A stretch of DNA of 44,699 nucleotides from a virus (IMGVR_UViG_2684622541_000016), one strand, 5' to 3'. Counted from the first letter of the stretch, positions 22,518 through 43,147 are shown. The notes: generated from the sequence alone by a model not told the origin. Numbers and translations: made by a program.

Positions 22518-23975
22518 TTAGGAGCGCCAAAAAAAACCTGAAAACAATATAATAACAGGATAAATTTCAAGGCGACCAAGAATCATAGCTATGCACATTA
22601 AATATTTTGCAATGTCATTAAGCACTCCGAATGACGATGCAGTAGCCCCAAAACCTAATCCCATATTATTAATACATGCAGCCACTGTTGCAAATGATGT
22701 AAGAAAATCATATCCCATACCATTTAACACCAGTATAAAAAACACCGTGAAGAGAGTATAAAGAAAAAAGAAACTCCATACAGACCTCATTACACGATCT
22801 GTAACTATCTTCCCTCCTACATTTACACTCAACAACGCTCTGGGATGAGAAAGCTGATTTATCTCGTGTTTGCTTTGTTTGAAAAGTATAAGAAATCGAA
22901 GTGACTTAATTCCACCACAGGTTGAACCTATACATCCCCCAAAGAAACTTGACAACAGCAAAAACACTATCGTGTGCGTGGGCCAGTTTGCATAATCCTG
23001 CGTAGCTAAACCATTATCAGTGAGCATGGAGCTGGCAAGAAAAAACGAATGAATAAAACTTCCATGCAAGTCATACATACCTATATGCCAGACCTGGAAA
23101 GAGGTAACAATGATCACCCCTAAGGCTATTAACAGAAAGAAACGAAGTTCAATATCTCTGATTAAAGGTTTTATCGTTTTTCTGCTAATAACAATATACC
23201 AAAGAGTGAAGTTGAAAGCCGATAGCAGGGAAAAAGAACCAGCCACCAGCTCAACCAAATAGTTATTAAAATATCCGATACTCTCGCTATGAGTTGAGAA
23301 ACCACCAAGCGAAACTGTGGAAATCCCGTGACAAATAGCATCAAACAAAGGCATTCCTGCAAGTCTATAACAGACAATACAAGCAATACCTAATAAAGAA
23401 TAAGTTATCCACAGTGTCCGTGACGTATCGGCCAGGCGGGGAGTGAGTTTGTCATCCTTAAATGGCCCCGGCATTTCTGACTGATAAAGCTTTGCACCAC
23501 CAATACCCAATAATGGCAATACTGCAACCGCCAGAACAATAACTCCTAAACCACCTATAAAATTTAACTGTGACCGATAGTACAAATATGCCCGAGGTAA
23601 TGAACTAACATCATCAATTACAGTTGCTCCTGTTGTTGTTATTCCAGAAACCCCTTCAAACAGAGCATCAATGAACGTTAAATTAAGTTCTGAGTCAATC
23701 CATAAAGGGAATGCACTAATAACAGAAAACAAAATCCAAAACATTACAATTATAATAAACCCATCACGGGTACGTAATTGAATGCCAGATTTCTTAGTTG
23801 TATACCACGCTCCGCCACCAATGCAAAAAAATATAACGAAAGTTATAAAGAAAACGAACAGGCTTTTTTCTTTATAAAACAATGCTACAACCATTGGTGG
23901 CAACATTGAAAGACTATAGAGCCAAACCAGGAACCCACACATATGAGTAACAACTCTTACATGAGATGTATTCAT
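22518..23975 (-). CDS. trkG: Trk-system potassium uptake protein TrkG (TrkH/KtrB family)
   Basis: Polytopic membrane protein with repeated glycine-containing selectivity-filter-like motifs (GITTTG, GGLG, GGFS, GLGF); 485 aa from MNTSHV; AT-rich; the Rac prophage of K-12 carries trkG at this position. Confidence 0.9.
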   Translation of the reverse strand: MNTSHVRVVTHMCGFLVWLYSLSMLPPMVVALFYKEKSLFVFFITFVIFFCIGGGAWYTTKKSGIQLRTRDGFIIIVMFWILFSVISAFPLWIDSELNLTFIDALFEGVSGITTTGATVIDDVSSLPRAYLYYRSQLNFIGGLGVIVLAVAVLPLLGIGGAKLYQSEMPGPFKDDKLTPRLADTSRTLWITYSLLGIACIVCYRLAGMPLFDAICHGISTVSLGGFSTHSESIGYFNNYLVELVAGSFSLLSAFNFTLWYIVISRKTIKPLIRDIELRFFLLIALGVIIVTSFQVWHIGMYDLHGSFIHSFFLASSMLTDNGLATQDYANWPTHTIVFLLLSSFFGGCIGSTCGGIKSLRFLILFKQSKHEINQLSHPRALLSVNVGGKIVTDRVMRSVWSFFFLYTLFTVFFILVLNGMGYDFLTSFATVAACINNMGLGFGATASSFGVLNDIAKYLMCIAMILGRLEIYPVIILFSGFFWRS

Positions 23976-24112
23976 ATCTAAATATTCTTTCAATTATAAC
24001 CACCTTGCTGCAATATTATGATTATACTGTATAAAATTTAACTCCTCTTAGATCTTACTTCACTGTTCCTTATGAAACAATCATCAAAATGAATCATATT
24101 GTAGTTAAGATT

Positions 24113-26518: not shown

Positions 26519-27107
26519 TTTTCCTCACATATGTCATATAGTAAAGGATTATATATACCGTTGTTTTGGACGCTCAAACAGCGAATCAGATCAAATAAAA
26601 CGCACATTTGTTAACATTTACACAAAGTCTGCGTGGGATATTCTGAAAGAATATCCATAATGTGGAGAGAATCTATTGAAGTGCATGGTGCCGGGTGCCT
26701 CCCGGTGAACAAAATGTTCGTGATACCTGTCGGCGACAGAAAAGGTTAATGGTATCACCCCACCGCACAGGGGGATTCACCATGCAGGAGTTTTCTTAGC
26801 AAACTCACTGCGCGCCCGGCAACTCCCAACCACATAAAATGCGGAGTTTGTGGCATTTATGCATATAACTCGCAGGAATTATCTTAAAAAACTGATGTCG
26901 ATCCGGATTAAAAAGAAGCAGGTCATCATCAGATGACTGGAAAAAAGGAAAACAAAAAATACTCATCATACAGTTTTGATTGCAGGGATGAGCCTGCTAT
27001 GCACAATATGCAGAATATAAGCAAGATAAAAATATGCAGGCATATTATTTCGGATCTTGTTATTAACACAACCTTTTTAATAATCATTTGGCATACAATA
27101 AACCAGC

Positions 27108-28991: not shown

Positions 28992-29271
28992 TTCTCAATC
29001 TCTCGATGGCGCAGCGCAGCAGATGCCAGTTGTTCAGGCTGACGAATAAAGTATAAATAAACTGGCTATGGTGTAAAGCCCCACATAGCATGAACAAACA
29101 CTACATATCAAATAGCTGGTACAAGGATAGAAATACGACACTTATTATTAAAAACGATTAGATAAATTACATTTTAATGTTATGCAAAAGTTCTTTTTTA
29201 TCATAACATTTCAATAAAAGCATTACAGATGCAATCATCCCGTCATCATCAATTATTTAAGGTGGTTAAAC

Positions 29272-29358
29272 ATGGAAAATAACAAGTTCGCACATCTCGC
29301 TCCTTTTTTATCCGTAATCCTTTTCGCTTGTTGTTTTATATGGGCATTATTTTTATAA
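29272..29358 (+). CDS. Small hydrophobic peptide (28 aa), type I toxin-like
   Basis: AAGGTGG ribosome binding site 6 nt before ATG; MENNKFAHLAPFLSVILFACCFIWALFL has a polar N-terminus and one transmembrane-like helix; lies in AT-rich DNA; not in the ORF track (under 60 aa). Confidence 0.3.
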   Translation: MENNKFAHLAPFLSVILFACCFIWALFL

Positions 29359-29766
29359 AGTAGCCACATGATAAGTTGCTGGAATCATATTTCCCACTCA
29401 AGTCATTAACATTTGATAAGATATATCTAAAAGGACGCCTTTACATTATTTATGCGTATATAATTTATTTATATACACAGTAAAGGTATCCTGGGAAAAT
29501 ATTTATCGTTAAAAAATACATCATAAATAATTAAGCTGAAATTTCAGAACACAACTAATACACACAATAAGGTTCAGTAACAGTAATCTATGTGGACTAC
29601 ATCGAGATTTTTTGATTAAACTTTAATAACTTATTCCTAACACACAGAATGCATAAACTAAAAGTAAAACAAATAGTTATACGAAAAACAACCATATTTA
29701 TTCTATCTTCTCCTCTAATCAACATATCAATTATGTGTTTCATAACAGCTTGACATAACCCTCCAA

Positions 29767-29789
29767 AAGATGCATTTTTAATGCATGTT
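29767..29789 (+). promoter_or_regulatory. NsrR-type operator (11-1-11 inverted repeat) upstream of the yeaR-like gene
   Basis: AAGATGCATTT t TAATGCATGTT: the left half equals the NsrR half-site as recalled (AAGATGCATTT) and the right half matches its complement at 9 of 11 positions; 16 nt upstream of the start codon. Confidence 0.5.
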
Positions 29790-29804
29790 TTGGAGGAGGT
29801 GGTT

Positions 29805-30143
29805 ATGACACACAAGAGAATTCCTAAAGATTGGGTAATCAAACGCTCAACTCCGTTCTTCACAAAAGAGAACGTACCTTCAGCGTTATTAACACATCAT
29901 AATACAGCAGCAGGTGTTTTTGGGCAGTTGTGCGTAATGGAAGGCACTGTAACATATTATGGTTTTACTGATGAGAATGCTACTGAACCGGAGATAAAAG
30001 TAGTCATTAATGCTGGCGCTTTTGCAACAAGCCCACCACAATACTGGCACCGTGTTGAACTAAGCGATGATGCTCAGTTTAATATTAACTTTTGGGTCGC
30101 TCCAGACTTTTCGGGCGAAAAAGTCTATAGCACCAAAAAATAG
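29805..30143 (+). CDS. YeaR-like DUF1971 protein
   Basis: GGAGGAGG ribosome binding site before ATG at 29805; product MTHKRIPKDWVIKRSTPFFTKENVPSALLTHHNTAAGVFGQL...FNINFWVAPD resembles E. coli YeaR (about 119 aa) as recalled. Confidence 0.65.
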   Translation: MTHKRIPKDWVIKRSTPFFTKENVPSALLTHHNTAAGVFGQLCVMEGTVTYYGFTDENATEPEIKVVINAGAFATSPPQYWHRVELSDDAQFNINFWVAPDFSGEKVYSTKK

Positions 30144-30172
30144 ATGATCATATTAAAAATGCTTTAACAGTC

Positions 30173-30209
30173 AGACCCGGCAGGGCTATCCCCGACGGGT
30201 CTCATTTTT
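30173..30209 (+). terminator. Intrinsic terminator after the yeaR-like gene
   Basis: Stem agacccg / cgggtct followed by caTTTTTg. Confidence 0.5.
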
Positions 30210-30361
30210 GTAAATATATTGGTTCTACATTGACAGGAGACTTCAACCATAAGAAGTAATCTGAATACTTGAGCAATAAATTTACTTAAGATTAATGAGC
30301 GCACCTTGCCGGACAAAGATAAACCAAGGTAACACCTTTTTTCTAGCCAGTATGTAATCAA

Positions 30362-30580
30362 TCAGAAAGCCGCTCCATAAGAACAACAGCAAGACAATAA
30401 ATTGCCATTACAGCCGCAATAGCCAGCGCACATTTGAGAACCAGCACGACAACCCCCTGTATTAGACGCACACCAGTCCTGATAAATATGAGGCTGTCTC
30501 GTCAGTGATTCAATACAACTATTGGGTATAGTTTCTGTGATTTTATTCTGTAGAAATGGAACACAACAACCAGTCACCAC
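30362..30580 (-). CDS. Cys-rich small hypothetical protein (about 72 aa)
   Basis: GTG start 6 nt after AAGGAA; 14 Cys including CC and CCC clusters (...CAGYCGCNGNLLSCCCSYGAAF); could be spurious. Confidence 0.25.
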   Translation of the reverse strand: MVTGCCVPFLQNKITETIPNSCIESLTRQPHIYQDWCASNTGGCRAGSQMCAGYCGCNGNLLSCCCSYGAAF

Positions 30581-30763
30581 CAGCACTTCCTTAAATGCTC
30601 TAAGTCAGAAACAAGCCAACATTTTAGTCCGCTTTGAGCGATCTGCAGACATTGCTAGCAGCCTTCTGTGTGAATTCTCAGGGAGCAGGTCGGCATAGCA
30701 TCACGTTGAGGCTCTTACCCTACTTGTTCACACCAACCCTAACTCCACAGACTGATTCATAAA

Positions 30764-31765
30764 TTAGTAATCTGCGTGTTTCGCACTTTTCAGAAATGCT
30801 TTCATATTTTCATTAGGTCGCTCAATTTCGAAGTTACTTCCATATAACTCTTGTAATTTTGGCCATAACTTACTTAATAACCCTCTCCTGCGATAAAATG
30901 GATGTATCCAAACGGTAGATAGGTACGGAGAATTTGCATTTGAATTGTTTATTGTGACCAGCCCAACTAAACATTGTCGATAACCACTATTATCCATTGA
31001 TTGTATTTCTTCGACGAATGGATACGCGATTACATCAGTCCAACCATGATCGGTTGTATCCCATTGCATTCCGTCATGACATTCCTTCGACTGATAGCGG
31101 CGTAAAGCTACACACGCGAGCTTTTGCCAATCTGGAGAATTAATTGTGATCTCTTCATCGTATGACGCGCCTATTGGAGCGGGTATTGGTCTGATTAATC
31201 CAGCATGGCATTCATCATAGAACTTCATGTTTCCCTCAGAAACGTTGTGTACGTTGGGTTGCTCCATGTGTGCGCCATTCAAAAATAGCTCTGATAGTAG
31301 TGTATCTACACTGTAATCTTTATTGATTATTGTCGGCTTAGAGTTTTTCTTATTAAGGCCGCGAGTAACGATTTTTTGATCAATGTTAACAACATGGAAT
31401 AATCCGTCGGGGAGGCTAGCGAACCACGATGGGGCATCGGACCAGAATAGCATGCCTTTTGTACTTCTTAAGAGTTTAATTAAGTTAATACAAGCTTCTT
31501 CACTAGTCTTGCCGTTGATGCGAAGTATGTTAGGACTAAAGTAATATTCATCCATATCAGGGAATGCAGCTTCGCAAAACTCCTGTACATAATTTAGCAC
31601 CTGGATTCTACAGAGATCATCATAGCTGGTAATAACTAAGGGGGTATCTTCATTACTATTATGATTATCAATAATGCAATCTATAGCGAGACTTACTGCT
31701 TTGCGTATCACTTCAGTTGAATCTAACGACTCTAAAAATTTTGTCTTTCGTGTGCGAATATCCAT
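30764..31765 (-). CDS. Hypothetical protein with GNAT acetyltransferase-like C-terminal motif
   Basis: 333 aa ORF in AT-rich DNA, 15 nt downstream of the HEPN-like gene; C-terminus ...CLVGLVTINNSNANSPYLSTVWIHPFYRRRGLLSKLWPKL fits GNAT motif A ([VI]-x-P-x-x-R-x-x-G). Confidence 0.55.
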   Translation of the reverse strand: MDIRTRKTKFLESLDSTEVIRKAVSLAIDCIIDNHNSNEDTPLVITSYDDLCRIQVLNYVQEFCEAAFPDMDEYYFSPNILRINGKTSEEACINLIKLLRSTKGMLFWSDAPSWFASLPDGLFHVVNIDQKIVTRGLNKKNSKPTIINKDYSVDTLLSELFLNGAHMEQPNVHNVSEGNMKFYDECHAGLIRPIPAPIGASYDEEITINSPDWQKLACVALRRYQSKECHDGMQWDTTDHGWTDVIAYPFVEEIQSMDNSGYRQCLVGLVTINNSNANSPYLSTVWIHPFYRRRGLLSKLWPKLQELYGSNFEIERPNENMKAFLKSAKHADY

Positions 31766-31780
31766 GTATGACCTGCGCTA

Positions 31781-32803
31781 TTAAAATTCATGAATGAACG
31801 GTTTGTCATCTGGTTGCAAAATGGTGGTTTTATTCGTTGCTACATTTAAACTGTTGTAGAGCATAATTGCCAGGTTCGATGCATTTTCAATCAGCGTTTC
31901 AAGATCCTGGTCTGTAATCACTACGAGGTTCCCTTCTTTATCCTTTCCACCACGATGCACTAAGTGATTTCGATTGAGGGTTGCCAATTCAATAGCTTCT
32001 ATCGGACAGTCTTTTTGTACTTTTATATCGAATGTAGCTTCATAGCGGTCGATTACCTTTTTAGTGCTATGCCAGCTTGCACTGATCAAGTGTTCCTTGA
32101 TTGACCTGATTAGCTCTCCCCTAATTTTCTCGATGGGTTCACCCTTGAAAGGCAACGCAGCAATATCTTTGCTTACTTTAAATTCAGTCTTACCTTTTTC
32201 TATACAATTGGCTATGTAGACATCATCTTTCTCTATAGAATTAATGAATAGCTCAACATAAAGCGTTTCCAAAGCTGTAATAACATTCGTGTAGAGCAAA
32301 CTAAGCAAGTGGTTTTTTTGCTGTTGTTCAGTTTTATCTTTTGCAAGTTTTTTTATTTTATCGATATTATCAATGAATTTTAAATACGGATTACCGGAAG
32401 ACGTTACAGCGTCGTAGATATCATCATCGTACCAATCATCTATATTATTTGAGTTTCCAGACCAGTCAAAACATTGTGTTTGTAATTCATCTACTAATTC
32501 CTCAATATACTCAGATTTAACATATTGACCGAAGATGGATTGTAGTTCTTCGCTCGCATCATACGGCCCGCCATATATGTAAGCATAGCCACCTTCTCTA
32601 CTTTCATACGGACAAGCATTTGCCGGATCTTCAAAGTTTTCAAAGAACCAGTTTTTCATTACTTCGAGTTGATCTTTTTTGCTTATGTATTTTAAAGATT
32701 TTAGTGGAACTTTCTTTCCATTAACCTCGAAAACAATTTTCACGATGTAACGCTCCCTTGTATCAATTGCGCAACTATTATACCACAGCGAAATACAGGG
32801 CAT
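31781..32803 (-). CDS. Hypothetical protein with C-terminal HEPN-like R-x4-H motif
   Basis: ORF 31781-32872; start placed at ATG 32803 (GGAGG 6 nt upstream), alternative GTG at 32743 (AGGGAG upstream, extended -10 TGGTATAAT at 32777-32787); ...ATLNRNHLVHRGG... carries R-x4-H near the C-terminus; AT-rich codon usage. Confidence 0.55.
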   Translation of the reverse strand: MPCISLWYNSCAIDTRERYIVKIVFEVNGKKVPLKSLKYISKKDQLEVMKNWFFENFEDPANACPYESREGGYAYIYGGPYDASEELQSIFGQYVKSEYIEELVDELQTQCFDWSGNSNNIDDWYDDDIYDAVTSSGNPYLKFIDNIDKIKKLAKDKTEQQQKNHLLSLLYTNVITALETLYVELFINSIEKDDVYIANCIEKGKTEFKVSKDIAALPFKGEPIEKIRGELIRSIKEHLISASWHSTKKVIDRYEATFDIKVQKDCPIEAIELATLNRNHLVHRGGKDKEGNLVVITDQDLETLIENASNLAIMLYNSLNVATNKTTILQPDDKPFIHEF

Positions 32804-32941
32804 AACCTGCCTCCTTAAACTAACATACCATGAGCCAGCAATGTCCGCTATTGGCACAAAGCGGACAACCACGCTAGCTCTCCCCTGTGCCAGAAAAATG
32901 TCAATTTACATATGAACTAATGCTCTTTGATCTAGTAACGT

Positions 32942-33358
32942 CTATAAATACCGAAGATTTCCTTGATAAAATGCCAGTACACGTTTCATAACTTCACTCT
33001 TCCGGCACTCGCGACAGATTATGTTCTGACGCCTGTCATAGCGGCGTATTTCTCCGTCTGGTAATGACCAGATAAGGTCAGGATCAACCACAACCGTTTT
33101 TTTCACCTTTGCCCTGGATAGTTTTTTGCGGGCGTTTTTCCAATCCTTACGAGCCTGTTCAGACGGGAATAACCCATAGCCAGAGTTGTATACATCGCCA
33201 CTGGCAACCAACTCTCTGGCAAGAATGCTCATCAGATATCTTGTCGCACCTGTCTTGGCCTCCAGTTGCCTTAACGTCTCGCGCCCACTCTGGCGTACCA
33301 ACTCAACAACCTGCTCCTTAATTTTTTCACGCTCTTCCTGTGTAAAAACTTTTGCCAT
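32942..33358 (-). CDS. Hypothetical phage protein
   Basis: Start MAKVFTQEE at 33358 with GGAGG ribosome binding site; basic, helical-looking 138 aa protein; follows the gene ending at 33374. Confidence 0.5.
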   Translation of the reverse strand: MAKVFTQEEREKIKEQVVELVRQSGRETLRQLEAKTGATRYLMSILARELVASGDVYNSGYGLFPSEQARKDWKNARKKLSRAKVKKTVVVDPDLIWSLPDGEIRRYDRRQNIICRECRKSEVMKRVLAFYQGNLRYL

Positions 33359-33373
33359 AAGCGCCTCCGGCAA

Positions 33374-42958: not shown

Positions 42959-43147
42959 ATGTATAAAATTACCGCCACTATTGAAAAGGAAGGTGGCACT
43001 CCTACTAACTGGACAAGATATTCAAAATCTAAACTAACGAAATCAGAATGCGAAAAAATGCTCTCAGGTAAAAAAGAAGCAGGCGTTTCCAGAGAGCAGA
43101 AAGTAAAACTGATAAATTTTAATTGCGAGAAACTTCAGTCCTCGTGA
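42959..43147 (+). CDS. Small hypothetical protein (YdaC-like by position)
   Basis: GGAGG ribosome binding site; MYKITATIEKEGGTPTNWTRYSKSKLTKSECEKMLSGKK..., 62 aa. Confidence 0.45.
   Translation: MYKITATIEKEGGTPTNWTRYSKSKLTKSECEKMLSGKKEAGVSREQKVKLINFNCEKLQSS

Follow-up and report, generated by a model that had tools for sequence, protein, structure and literature searches.

The yeaR-yoaG operon of E. coli K-12, whose first gene encodes a DUF1971 protein, is repressed by NsrR, activated by NarL and induced under nitric oxide (NO)-generating conditions. A second DUF1971 protein, STM1808 of Salmonella enterica serovar Typhimurium, reportedly belongs to the NsrR regulon as well. PMC7527575, with reference to Karlinsey et al. 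2012, places the gene in the NsrR regulon and ascribes to it a role in virulence. Here we analysed a DUF1971 gene at 29805-30143 on the plus strand of a 44,699-nt viral DNA, the whole of which is referred to as the window and which is a complete Rac-family lambdoid prophage. Sequence comparison leads us to put a probability of roughly 78% on the reading that this gene, which is of the STM1808 type, forms a self-contained moron of the prophage that is repressed by NsrR and induced by NO.

The closest of these systems is STM1808, with which the phage copy shares 79% protein identity, the DUF1971 domain, a short leader, a single-gene unit and an NsrR-type palindrome over a putative -10 with a -35-like element 17-18 bp upstream. 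The two differ in that STM1808 is chromosomal and directly follows the dsbB terminator, whereas the phage copy is part of the cargo of a prophage and is encoded on the other strand from the phage genes; the site lies 27 nt from the ATG in STM1808 and 15 nt in the phage copy, and the outer arms of the palindrome differ in sequence and reach the Shine-Dalgarno sequence in the phage copy. The yeaR-yoaG promoter also has an 11-1-11 NsrR site (AAATGGTATTTAAAATGCAAATT, 23.7 bits), but YeaR is a paralog with 43% protein identity, the phage gene has no yoaG partner, and the yeaR site is 66 nt rather than 15 nt from its ATG. The E. coli ytfE promoter carries a nearly identical operator (21 of 23 positions) 26 nt from the start codon, with an A/T-rich centre that could act as a -10, although it controls an unrelated di-iron repair protein and its palindrome ends at 11 nt per arm. 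Lastly, PDB entry 3DL3, named 'tellurite resistance protein B' from Aliivibrio fischeri, is about 80% identical to the phage protein over its full length, but upstream of the Aliivibrio gene there is no NsrR-type site (L069, 7.4 bits); its TehB name is misleading, as the methyltransferase domain is absent.

Direct reading of 29400-30600 revealed the repeat halves AAGATGCATTT-T-TAATGCATGTT at 29767-29789 (AAGATGCATTTTTAATGCATGTT; no strand assigned), separated by 15 nt from the ATG at 29805. The first-pass annotation had correctly recognized an 11-1-11 inverted repeat in front of the gene; it had placed the gap at 16 nt, one more than is present, and its description was incomplete in that the repeat is the core of a longer 17-3-17 repeat at 29760-29796. 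Mehta et al. 2015 tabulated 27 NsrR sites with an 11-1-11 motif in E. coli CFT073 (PMC5320621, Table 4), from which we built a symmetric weight matrix. With this matrix, under which the 27 sites themselves score 11.7-31.3 bits, the window site scores 27.8 bits and would rank second, below ytfE only (ytfE 31.3, hcp 25.8, yeaR 23.7, ygbA 22.2 and hmp 20.3 bits); with a matrix restricted to ChIP-positive sites it scores 26.1 bits. The runner-up position anywhere in the 44.7-kb window reaches 13.7 bits with the 27-site matrix. A scan with an NsrR matrix, which had been proposed as a check, therefore puts the site near the top of the known-site range. The repeat conforms to the half-site consensus (AAGATGCATTT-type, 11-1-11). 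Compared with the ytfE operator, 21 of its 23 positions are identical when the minus strand is read and 20 when the plus strand is read, while 100 shuffles of the window yielded no match to the ytfE operator with three or fewer mismatches. Since Table 4 of PMC5320621 contains no such site, CFT073, the strain used for ChIP-seq, lacks the phage gene.

We considered whether the palindrome could be the operator of another regulator, such as a phage repressor, an Rrf2 protein like IscR, or Fur, with a coincidental likeness to NsrR sites. The agreement at 21 of 23 positions with the strongest known NsrR operator speaks against this, as does the result of the matrix scan of the window, which found no second copy of the palindrome in the prophage, although one would be expected for a phage repressor. 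The same core also lies beside non-phage chromosomal orthologs in many genera. On these grounds we regard control by a different regulator as very improbable, and the distribution of Fur-box-like elements described below does not favour it for the phage copy.

The ortholog set comprised 80 loci from one scan of a species-representative genome collection. All 50 enterobacterial orthologs from species other than Escherichia/Shigella have an NsrR-type site at a distance of 15-27 nt from the start codon, upstream of it; among them are members of Kluyvera, Leclercia, Citrobacter, Salmonella, Klebsiella, Raoultella and other genera. In 49 of the 50 the site scores 20.7-30.4 bits, and it is by far the top site in each 4.5-8-kb locus; in the exception, a Leclercia locus (L010), the loss of 1 nt from the middle of the site lowers the score to 12.2 bits. 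The Shigella locus in the set (L003) carries the phage cassette itself. The matrix scan found no NsrR-type site upstream of the gene in most of the Vibrio, Aliivibrio, Shewanella and Agarivorans loci, and two Photobacterium loci have one. Since most Vibrio and Shewanella orthologs are without the site, the link between the gene and NsrR is a property of the lineage and not of the gene family. In Neptunomonas and Parendozoicomonas (L067, L070, L077) the DUF1971 gene likewise has no NsrR-type site of its own; strong sites of 18-24 bits, some of them paired about 25-35 nt apart, occur 1-2 kb away, where they may be assumed to serve NO-response genes in the neighbourhood. Between the phage gene and its enterobacterial orthologs, pS is 0.7-0.97 (about 0.9) and pN is 0.11-0.16. 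As synonymous sites are saturated at this distance, the retained 23-bp core is a genuine footprint.

A 19-mer resembling a Fur box lies immediately upstream of the -35 in chromosomal orthologs of Kluyvera, Leclercia, Buttiauxella, a Pantoea sp. and two Photobacterium species. It shares 13-17 of its 19 positions with GATAATGATAATCATTATC and is present in L004-L025, where its distance to the ATG is about 64-66 nt, and in L056 and L076. This arrangement suggests dual control by Fur and NsrR at the orthologs that bear the box, and its presence in the Kluyvera group indicates that regulation of the family is not by NsrR alone, which is the one point in favour of a different regulator. The phage copy has no Fur box, its best match of 11 of 19 positions being background for the window, and none is present in the Citrobacter, Salmonella and Klebsiella copies. 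The stretch of homology between the cassette and the chromosomal loci of the Kluyvera group begins at about the -35 and ends with the stop codon; the terminators are different. As regards a donor of the cassette, the phage protein is roughly equidistant (75-82%) from enterobacterial and Vibrionaceae orthologs, and the GC content of its gene, 41%, fits neither Kluyvera (53%) nor a recent transfer.

A -35-like hexamer, a perfect TTGACA, was read directly at 29750-29755 on the plus strand, and a hexamer of this kind holds the same position in all the enterobacterial orthologs. The hexamer 17 bp from it, CATTTT at 29773-29778 on the same strand, falls within the operator at site positions 7-12, a position comparable to that in the orthologs, and would serve as a weak -10. 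The corresponding pairs of -35-like hexamer and site positions 7-12 are TTTACA and TATTTT in the Kluyvera group, TTGCCT and TATATT in Citrobacter/Salmonella, and TTGACG or TTGACC and CATATT in Klebsiella/Raoultella, with a spacing of 17-18 bp in all four lineages. This conserved geometry implies an overlap of the operator with the putative -10, but that element is weak in the window allele. In Salmonella the gene order is fadR-nhaB-dsbB-gene, and we take the dsbB-adjacent gene to be STM1808 from the gene numbering and order of LT2; in Citrobacter and Salmonella about 75 nt lie between the dsbB terminator and the ATG, so there is no room for another promoter.

A scan for consensus promoters and terminators returned neither a plus-strand promoter nor a plus-strand terminator for the cassette, the promoter going uncalled because its -10 is weak (CATTTT, 3 of 6 positions). 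The putative sigma-70 promoter (TTGACA, 17 bp, CATTTT) is thus drawn from comparative geometry, and the terminator from folding. Transcription is predicted to start near 29785, in which case the operator would span about -19 to +4, and the leader from this start is unstructured according to RNA folding (z = +0.9). The Shine-Dalgarno sequence, GGAGGAGG, was read directly at 29792-29799 on the plus strand, 5 nt before the ATG, and its GGAG is kept at this place in the orthologs. In the canonical targets ytfE, hcp, hmp and ygbA the distance from site to ATG is 14-27 nt. Downstream, RNA folding and the repeat finder point to a probable intrinsic terminator at 30173-30209 on the plus strand, in which a UUUUU run comes after a G+C-rich imperfect hairpin at 30173-30202 (hairpin and U-run together, -19.4 kcal/mol, z = -2.2). 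Of the operator and terminator with which the gene had been credited at first, the operator has held up as an NsrR-type sequence; the terminator is real as a fold and was missed by a simple terminator scan.

The ATG at 29805 is also the RefSeq start of an identical gene, and the stop codon occupies 30141-30143. An alternative upstream ATG at 29781, proposed by an ORF tool, falls inside the repeat, and all ortholog N-termini begin with MSH or MTH. The 112-residue product matches Pfam DUF1971 (PF09313) over profile positions 1-80 of 80 with E = 2.3e-26 and 92 bits against a cut-off of 23.1, so that the alignment to this family anticipated by the first-pass annotation is clear. Among structures, 3DL3, a structural-genomics entry, is matched with E = 3.5e-59 and 200.9 bits (its identity figure was taken from the printed alignment), E. 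coli YeaR (3BB6) with E = 1.6e-24, 89.3 bits and 43% identity, and the N-domain of Haemophilus influenzae TehB (3M70) with E = 5e-11 and 45.7 bits. The Salmonella gene adjoining dsbB (P0014) encodes a protein 79% identical to that of the window. By the Pfam and structure matches and by pairwise identity, the protein belongs to an STM1808/3DL3 subfamily and is closer to STM1808-type proteins than to YeaR or the TehB N-domain. The gene had initially been called a prophage copy of yeaR; with 43% identity to YeaR against 79-80% to the Salmonella dsbB-adjacent gene and 3DL3, it is an STM1808-type paralog, and a duplicated yeaR is ruled out.

An identity as TehB, the SAM-dependent tellurite methyltransferase, was also rejected, since the methyltransferase domain is absent: the NCBIfam TehB equivalog gives 49 bits against a cut-off of 303, with a match restricted to profile positions 11-106 of 289. 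WP_000149055.1 is annotated as 'DUF1971 domain-containing protein' in some RefSeq genomes and as 'TehB family protein' in others, and the latter label wrongly implies a methyltransferase. Across 17 diverse members, including the window protein, H31, H32, C43, H82 and E85 are invariant. In STM1808, H32 and H82 are reportedly needed for zinc binding and NO resistance. The phage product is probably a small metal-binding protein of the cupin type, in which His31, His32, His82 and Glu85 are invariant, and from its full-length identity of about 80% to 3DL3 its fold may be regarded as effectively known. A protein search returned a tight E. coli/Shigella cluster at 95% identity or above and an outer shell at 72-82% comprising Kluyvera, Leclercia, Citrobacter, Salmonella, Klebsiella, Raoultella, Vibrio, Aliivibrio, Photobacterium and Shewanella. 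Judging from these matches, E. coli appears to have no other STM1808-type gene, YeaR being the 43% paralog. Among the phage alleles dN/dS is 0.08-0.16, and the ORF is thus under purifying selection.

The plus strand of the prophage carries the integrase, RecE and RecT, and the minus strand the RalA sRNA, SieB, a DnaC-like gene, DUF977, DUF1367/YbcO/Q-like genes, the lysis genes, TrkG, the terminase and the tape measure gene. The DUF1971 gene is on the strand opposite to the neighbouring phage genes, and the cassette lies in a low-GC island (GC 25-43%, compared with about 50% on either side). A query of 801 nt covering the gene and its surroundings was found in 466 of 5426 complete E. coli genomes and in three induced phages (vB_EcoS-666R9 and relatives), and a promoter-plus-gene query in 457 of the 5426, which corresponds to a prevalence of about 8.4-8.6%. 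Every copy whose context was examined is located in a Rac-type prophage or phage. The features of a moron are present, namely the opposite strand, low GC, a terminator fold and occurrence in a subset of genomes (about 8%), together with an inferred promoter. The initial claim of a prophage moron is thereby confirmed by the Rac-type context, the strand and the low-GC island.

Four annotated examples share one arrangement: DUF1367 is followed by about 800 nt of AT-rich DNA without ORFs, and the DUF1971 gene is the first element to come next. What lies to the right of this gene varies: two genes of unknown function in the window, three other hypothetical genes in L001, hok/gef and KilA-N in L122, and in L123 a five-gene block encoding an MFS transporter, a gamma-glutamylcyclotransferase, a LysR protein, a DUF2254 protein and a BCCT transporter. 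The slot between DUF1367 and DUF977 (window 28992-33373) is a cargo hot spot of Rac-type prophages, with the DUF1971 gene as its constant left element. The two adjacent genes of unknown function in the low-GC cargo slot of the window, at 30764-32872 on the minus strand, encode a 333-residue protein with a weak GNAT acetyltransferase match (E = 9e-4) and a 363-residue protein with a weak HEPN/RES N-terminal domain match (E = 2e-4), both below cut-off. PADLOC returned zero matches for the DUF1971 protein and these two neighbours; the pair could be a toxin-antitoxin or defence pair. Upstream of the moron, about 760 nt without an ORF (28992-29750, 25-30% GC) have been conserved in Rac-like phages, with a 64-nt insertion/deletion at 29493 and no Rfam match. 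This stretch may be bound by H-NS or may hold promoters of the nin genes on the minus strand.

Rfam matches above the gathering score elsewhere in the window were the RalA antitoxin sRNA of RalR/RalA (225 bits, 42965-43143, minus strand) and STnc100 (86.6 bits, 26629-26815, minus strand), the latter upstream of the lysis region. A TrkG/TrkH potassium transporter gene (22518-23993, minus strand, E = 1e-144), which is likewise known as cargo of Rac, is situated between the genes for lysis and those for packaging.

In the proposed mechanism, the host iron-sulfur repressor NsrR would bind the 29767-29789 palindrome over the -10 and the predicted start and so block RNA polymerase. Nitric oxide would nitrosylate the NsrR cluster, the repressor would leave and the gene would be transcribed with a short (about 20 nt), unstructured leader, and the product would add to the nitrosative-stress response of the lysogen, as reported for the Salmonella ortholog. 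NsrR binding, induction by NO, the transcription start and a benefit to the host are steps that we infer. The operator of the commonest phage allele is weaker than that of the window (20.7 bits), yet the hmp operator scores 20.3. Overall, the site score, the DUF1971 match, the ortholog footprint and the prophage context support the original reading of the cassette as an NsrR-controlled moron.

The NsrR core is embedded in an extended 17-3-17 palindrome, CCTCCAAAAGATGCATT/AATGCATGTTTTGGAGG, at 29760-29796 (no strand assigned), which the repeat finder reports with one mismatch and 94% complementarity. Its right arm takes in the Shine-Dalgarno sequence, and an additional outer arm pair, 29751-29760 and 29801-29810, was found by the same tool. 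As RNA the 17-3-17 palindrome folds with -21.4 kcal/mol (z = -7.2). Rfam searches at gathering and permissive thresholds identified no RNA family at the locus, a lone sub-threshold microRNA model reflecting the hairpin only.

A survey of 37 IMG/VR contigs and other phage copies distinguished three main operator types. Allele A, that of the window (27.8 bits), accounts for 8 of the 40 phage-type copies listed, and would be present in about 26 of 457 genomes if the band of at least 99% identity is equated with it. Allele B (CCCTCAAAAACACGCATTTATAATGCATGTTTTTGAGG, 20.7 bits) is the commonest phage allele and would correspond to the 98.0-98.5% identity band, and alleles C/D (AAGGTGCATTTATAATGCATGTT) score 25.7-26.6 bits. 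The strength of the alleles among phage cassettes ranges from 17.7 to 28.6 bits (window; L003, L086, L090, L098, L108 and L109). Of 1220 positions compared between the window and a type-B cassette, 11 differ, and five of these fall within the 29 nt of 29764-29792, which makes the operator region a hot spot of substitution among phage cassettes that are otherwise nearly identical. Two double changes outside the NsrR core compensate each other across the palindrome: 29764 C>A is paired with 29792 G>T, and 29761 C>A with 29795 G>T, and for the latter pair a single-change intermediate occurs in other contigs. Citrobacter, Salmonella and Yokenella have outer arms of their own, different in sequence and near-perfect to 19-21 nt from the centre, that covary (86% Watson-Crick pairing against 17-34% with a slid partner). 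The orthologs of the Kluyvera-like and Klebsiella/Raoultella groups have no outer arms, their 30-32% Watson-Crick pairing being background, and the ytfE, hcp, hmp, yeaR and ygbA operators show no arm extension. Extended arms as a general property of NsrR operators are therefore ruled out, as they are absent from five canonical operators and from two of the four ortholog lineages. For A3, an ungapped alignment of 65 sequences, covariation scores 0.236; shuffles give 0.144, with 0 of 500 attaining 0.236, and slid partners give 0.03-0.14. No enrichment of G.U pairs, a signature of RNA-level selection, was found. The slid controls for the phage alleles are high (32-55%) because of A and T runs.

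These observations bear on a possible role of the palindrome as an RNA hairpin, be it the main role or one besides that of an operator. In RNA entering from upstream, the Shine-Dalgarno sequence would be sequestered by the left arm (CCUCC...) and the AUG enclosed by pairing of the outer arms, and such read-through RNA would go untranslated. Transcripts starting inside the right arm, at the NsrR-controlled promoter, would then be the only ones with a free ribosome-binding site, and the sequence would have a dual function as operator and anti-Shine-Dalgarno hairpin. The repeat does reach 7 nt per side past the NsrR core, ending in CCTCC/GGAGG, and the RNA of 29745-29815, outer arms included, folds with -26.5 kcal/mol (z = -5.2) and buries the Shine-Dalgarno sequence and AUG, in contrast to the unstructured leader (z = +0.9). 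The two compensatory outer-arm double changes with the single-change intermediate, a covariation in excess of the shuffled and slid controls, and the absence of the extension from canonical NsrR targets agree with such a role. It fits less well that the Kluyvera-like and Klebsiella/Raoultella orthologs do without outer arms, that those of Citrobacter and Salmonella stop short of the Shine-Dalgarno sequence, that G.U pairs are not enriched, and that the high slid controls of the phage alleles stem from A and T runs. Moreover, the promoter scan found no upstream plus-strand promoter from which read-through could come, and the neighbouring phage genes are on the other strand. We consider a hairpin function rather unlikely.

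Alternatively, the extended palindrome and its clustered substitutions may be a mutational by-product without function, produced by intra-strand template switching during replication, in which one arm serves as template for the other; the repeat on either side of a selected NsrR core would thereby grow longer and more perfect. Template-switch mutagenesis at quasi-palindromes is established in E. coli. The concentration of 5 of the 11 differences between two 1220-nt cassettes in 29 nt of palindrome would be expected from such a process, as would multi-nucleotide changes that keep or restore complementarity, outer arms that are lineage-specific and differ in sequence, and the missing G.U signature of RNA selection. 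Against it, five other strong E. coli NsrR palindromes have no extension, the direction of the changes cannot be inferred without an outgroup, and selection on operator strength could equally cluster the changes. We hold this explanation to have somewhat less than an even chance of being correct, and for the extended palindrome we favour it over a hairpin that silences read-through. A combination, in which one hypermutable quasi-palindrome works on two levels, as NsrR operator on DNA and as anti-Shine-Dalgarno hairpin on read-through RNA, and in which alleles of 27.8, 26.6 and 20.7 bits set different basal and induced levels, strikes us as speculative and quite unlikely.

Repression by NsrR that is relieved by NO is an already known kind of control, and the gene family is known in the NsrR regulon from Salmonella. 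Our literature search found no paper linking DUF1971, NsrR and a prophage, or mentioning this phage copy; the spread of the cassette with its operator by Rac-family prophages through about 8% of sequenced E. coli thus appears to be undescribed. The analysis also corrects the misleading 'TehB family' label. If the main reading is true, the cassette would offer a compact natural NO-responsive promoter, as predicted, with allelic variants of graded predicted strength, and would clearly exemplify a temperate phage that connects one of its cargo genes to a stress regulon of the host through the operator of the host's own repressor. The gene would stay silent until the lysogen meets nitric oxide, for example in inflamed gut tissue, in macrophages or during nitrate respiration. 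About one in twelve E. coli genomes has gained, via Rac-type prophages, an STM1808-type protein that is chromosomally encoded in Salmonella, Citrobacter and Klebsiella and that has been tied to NO resistance and virulence in Salmonella.
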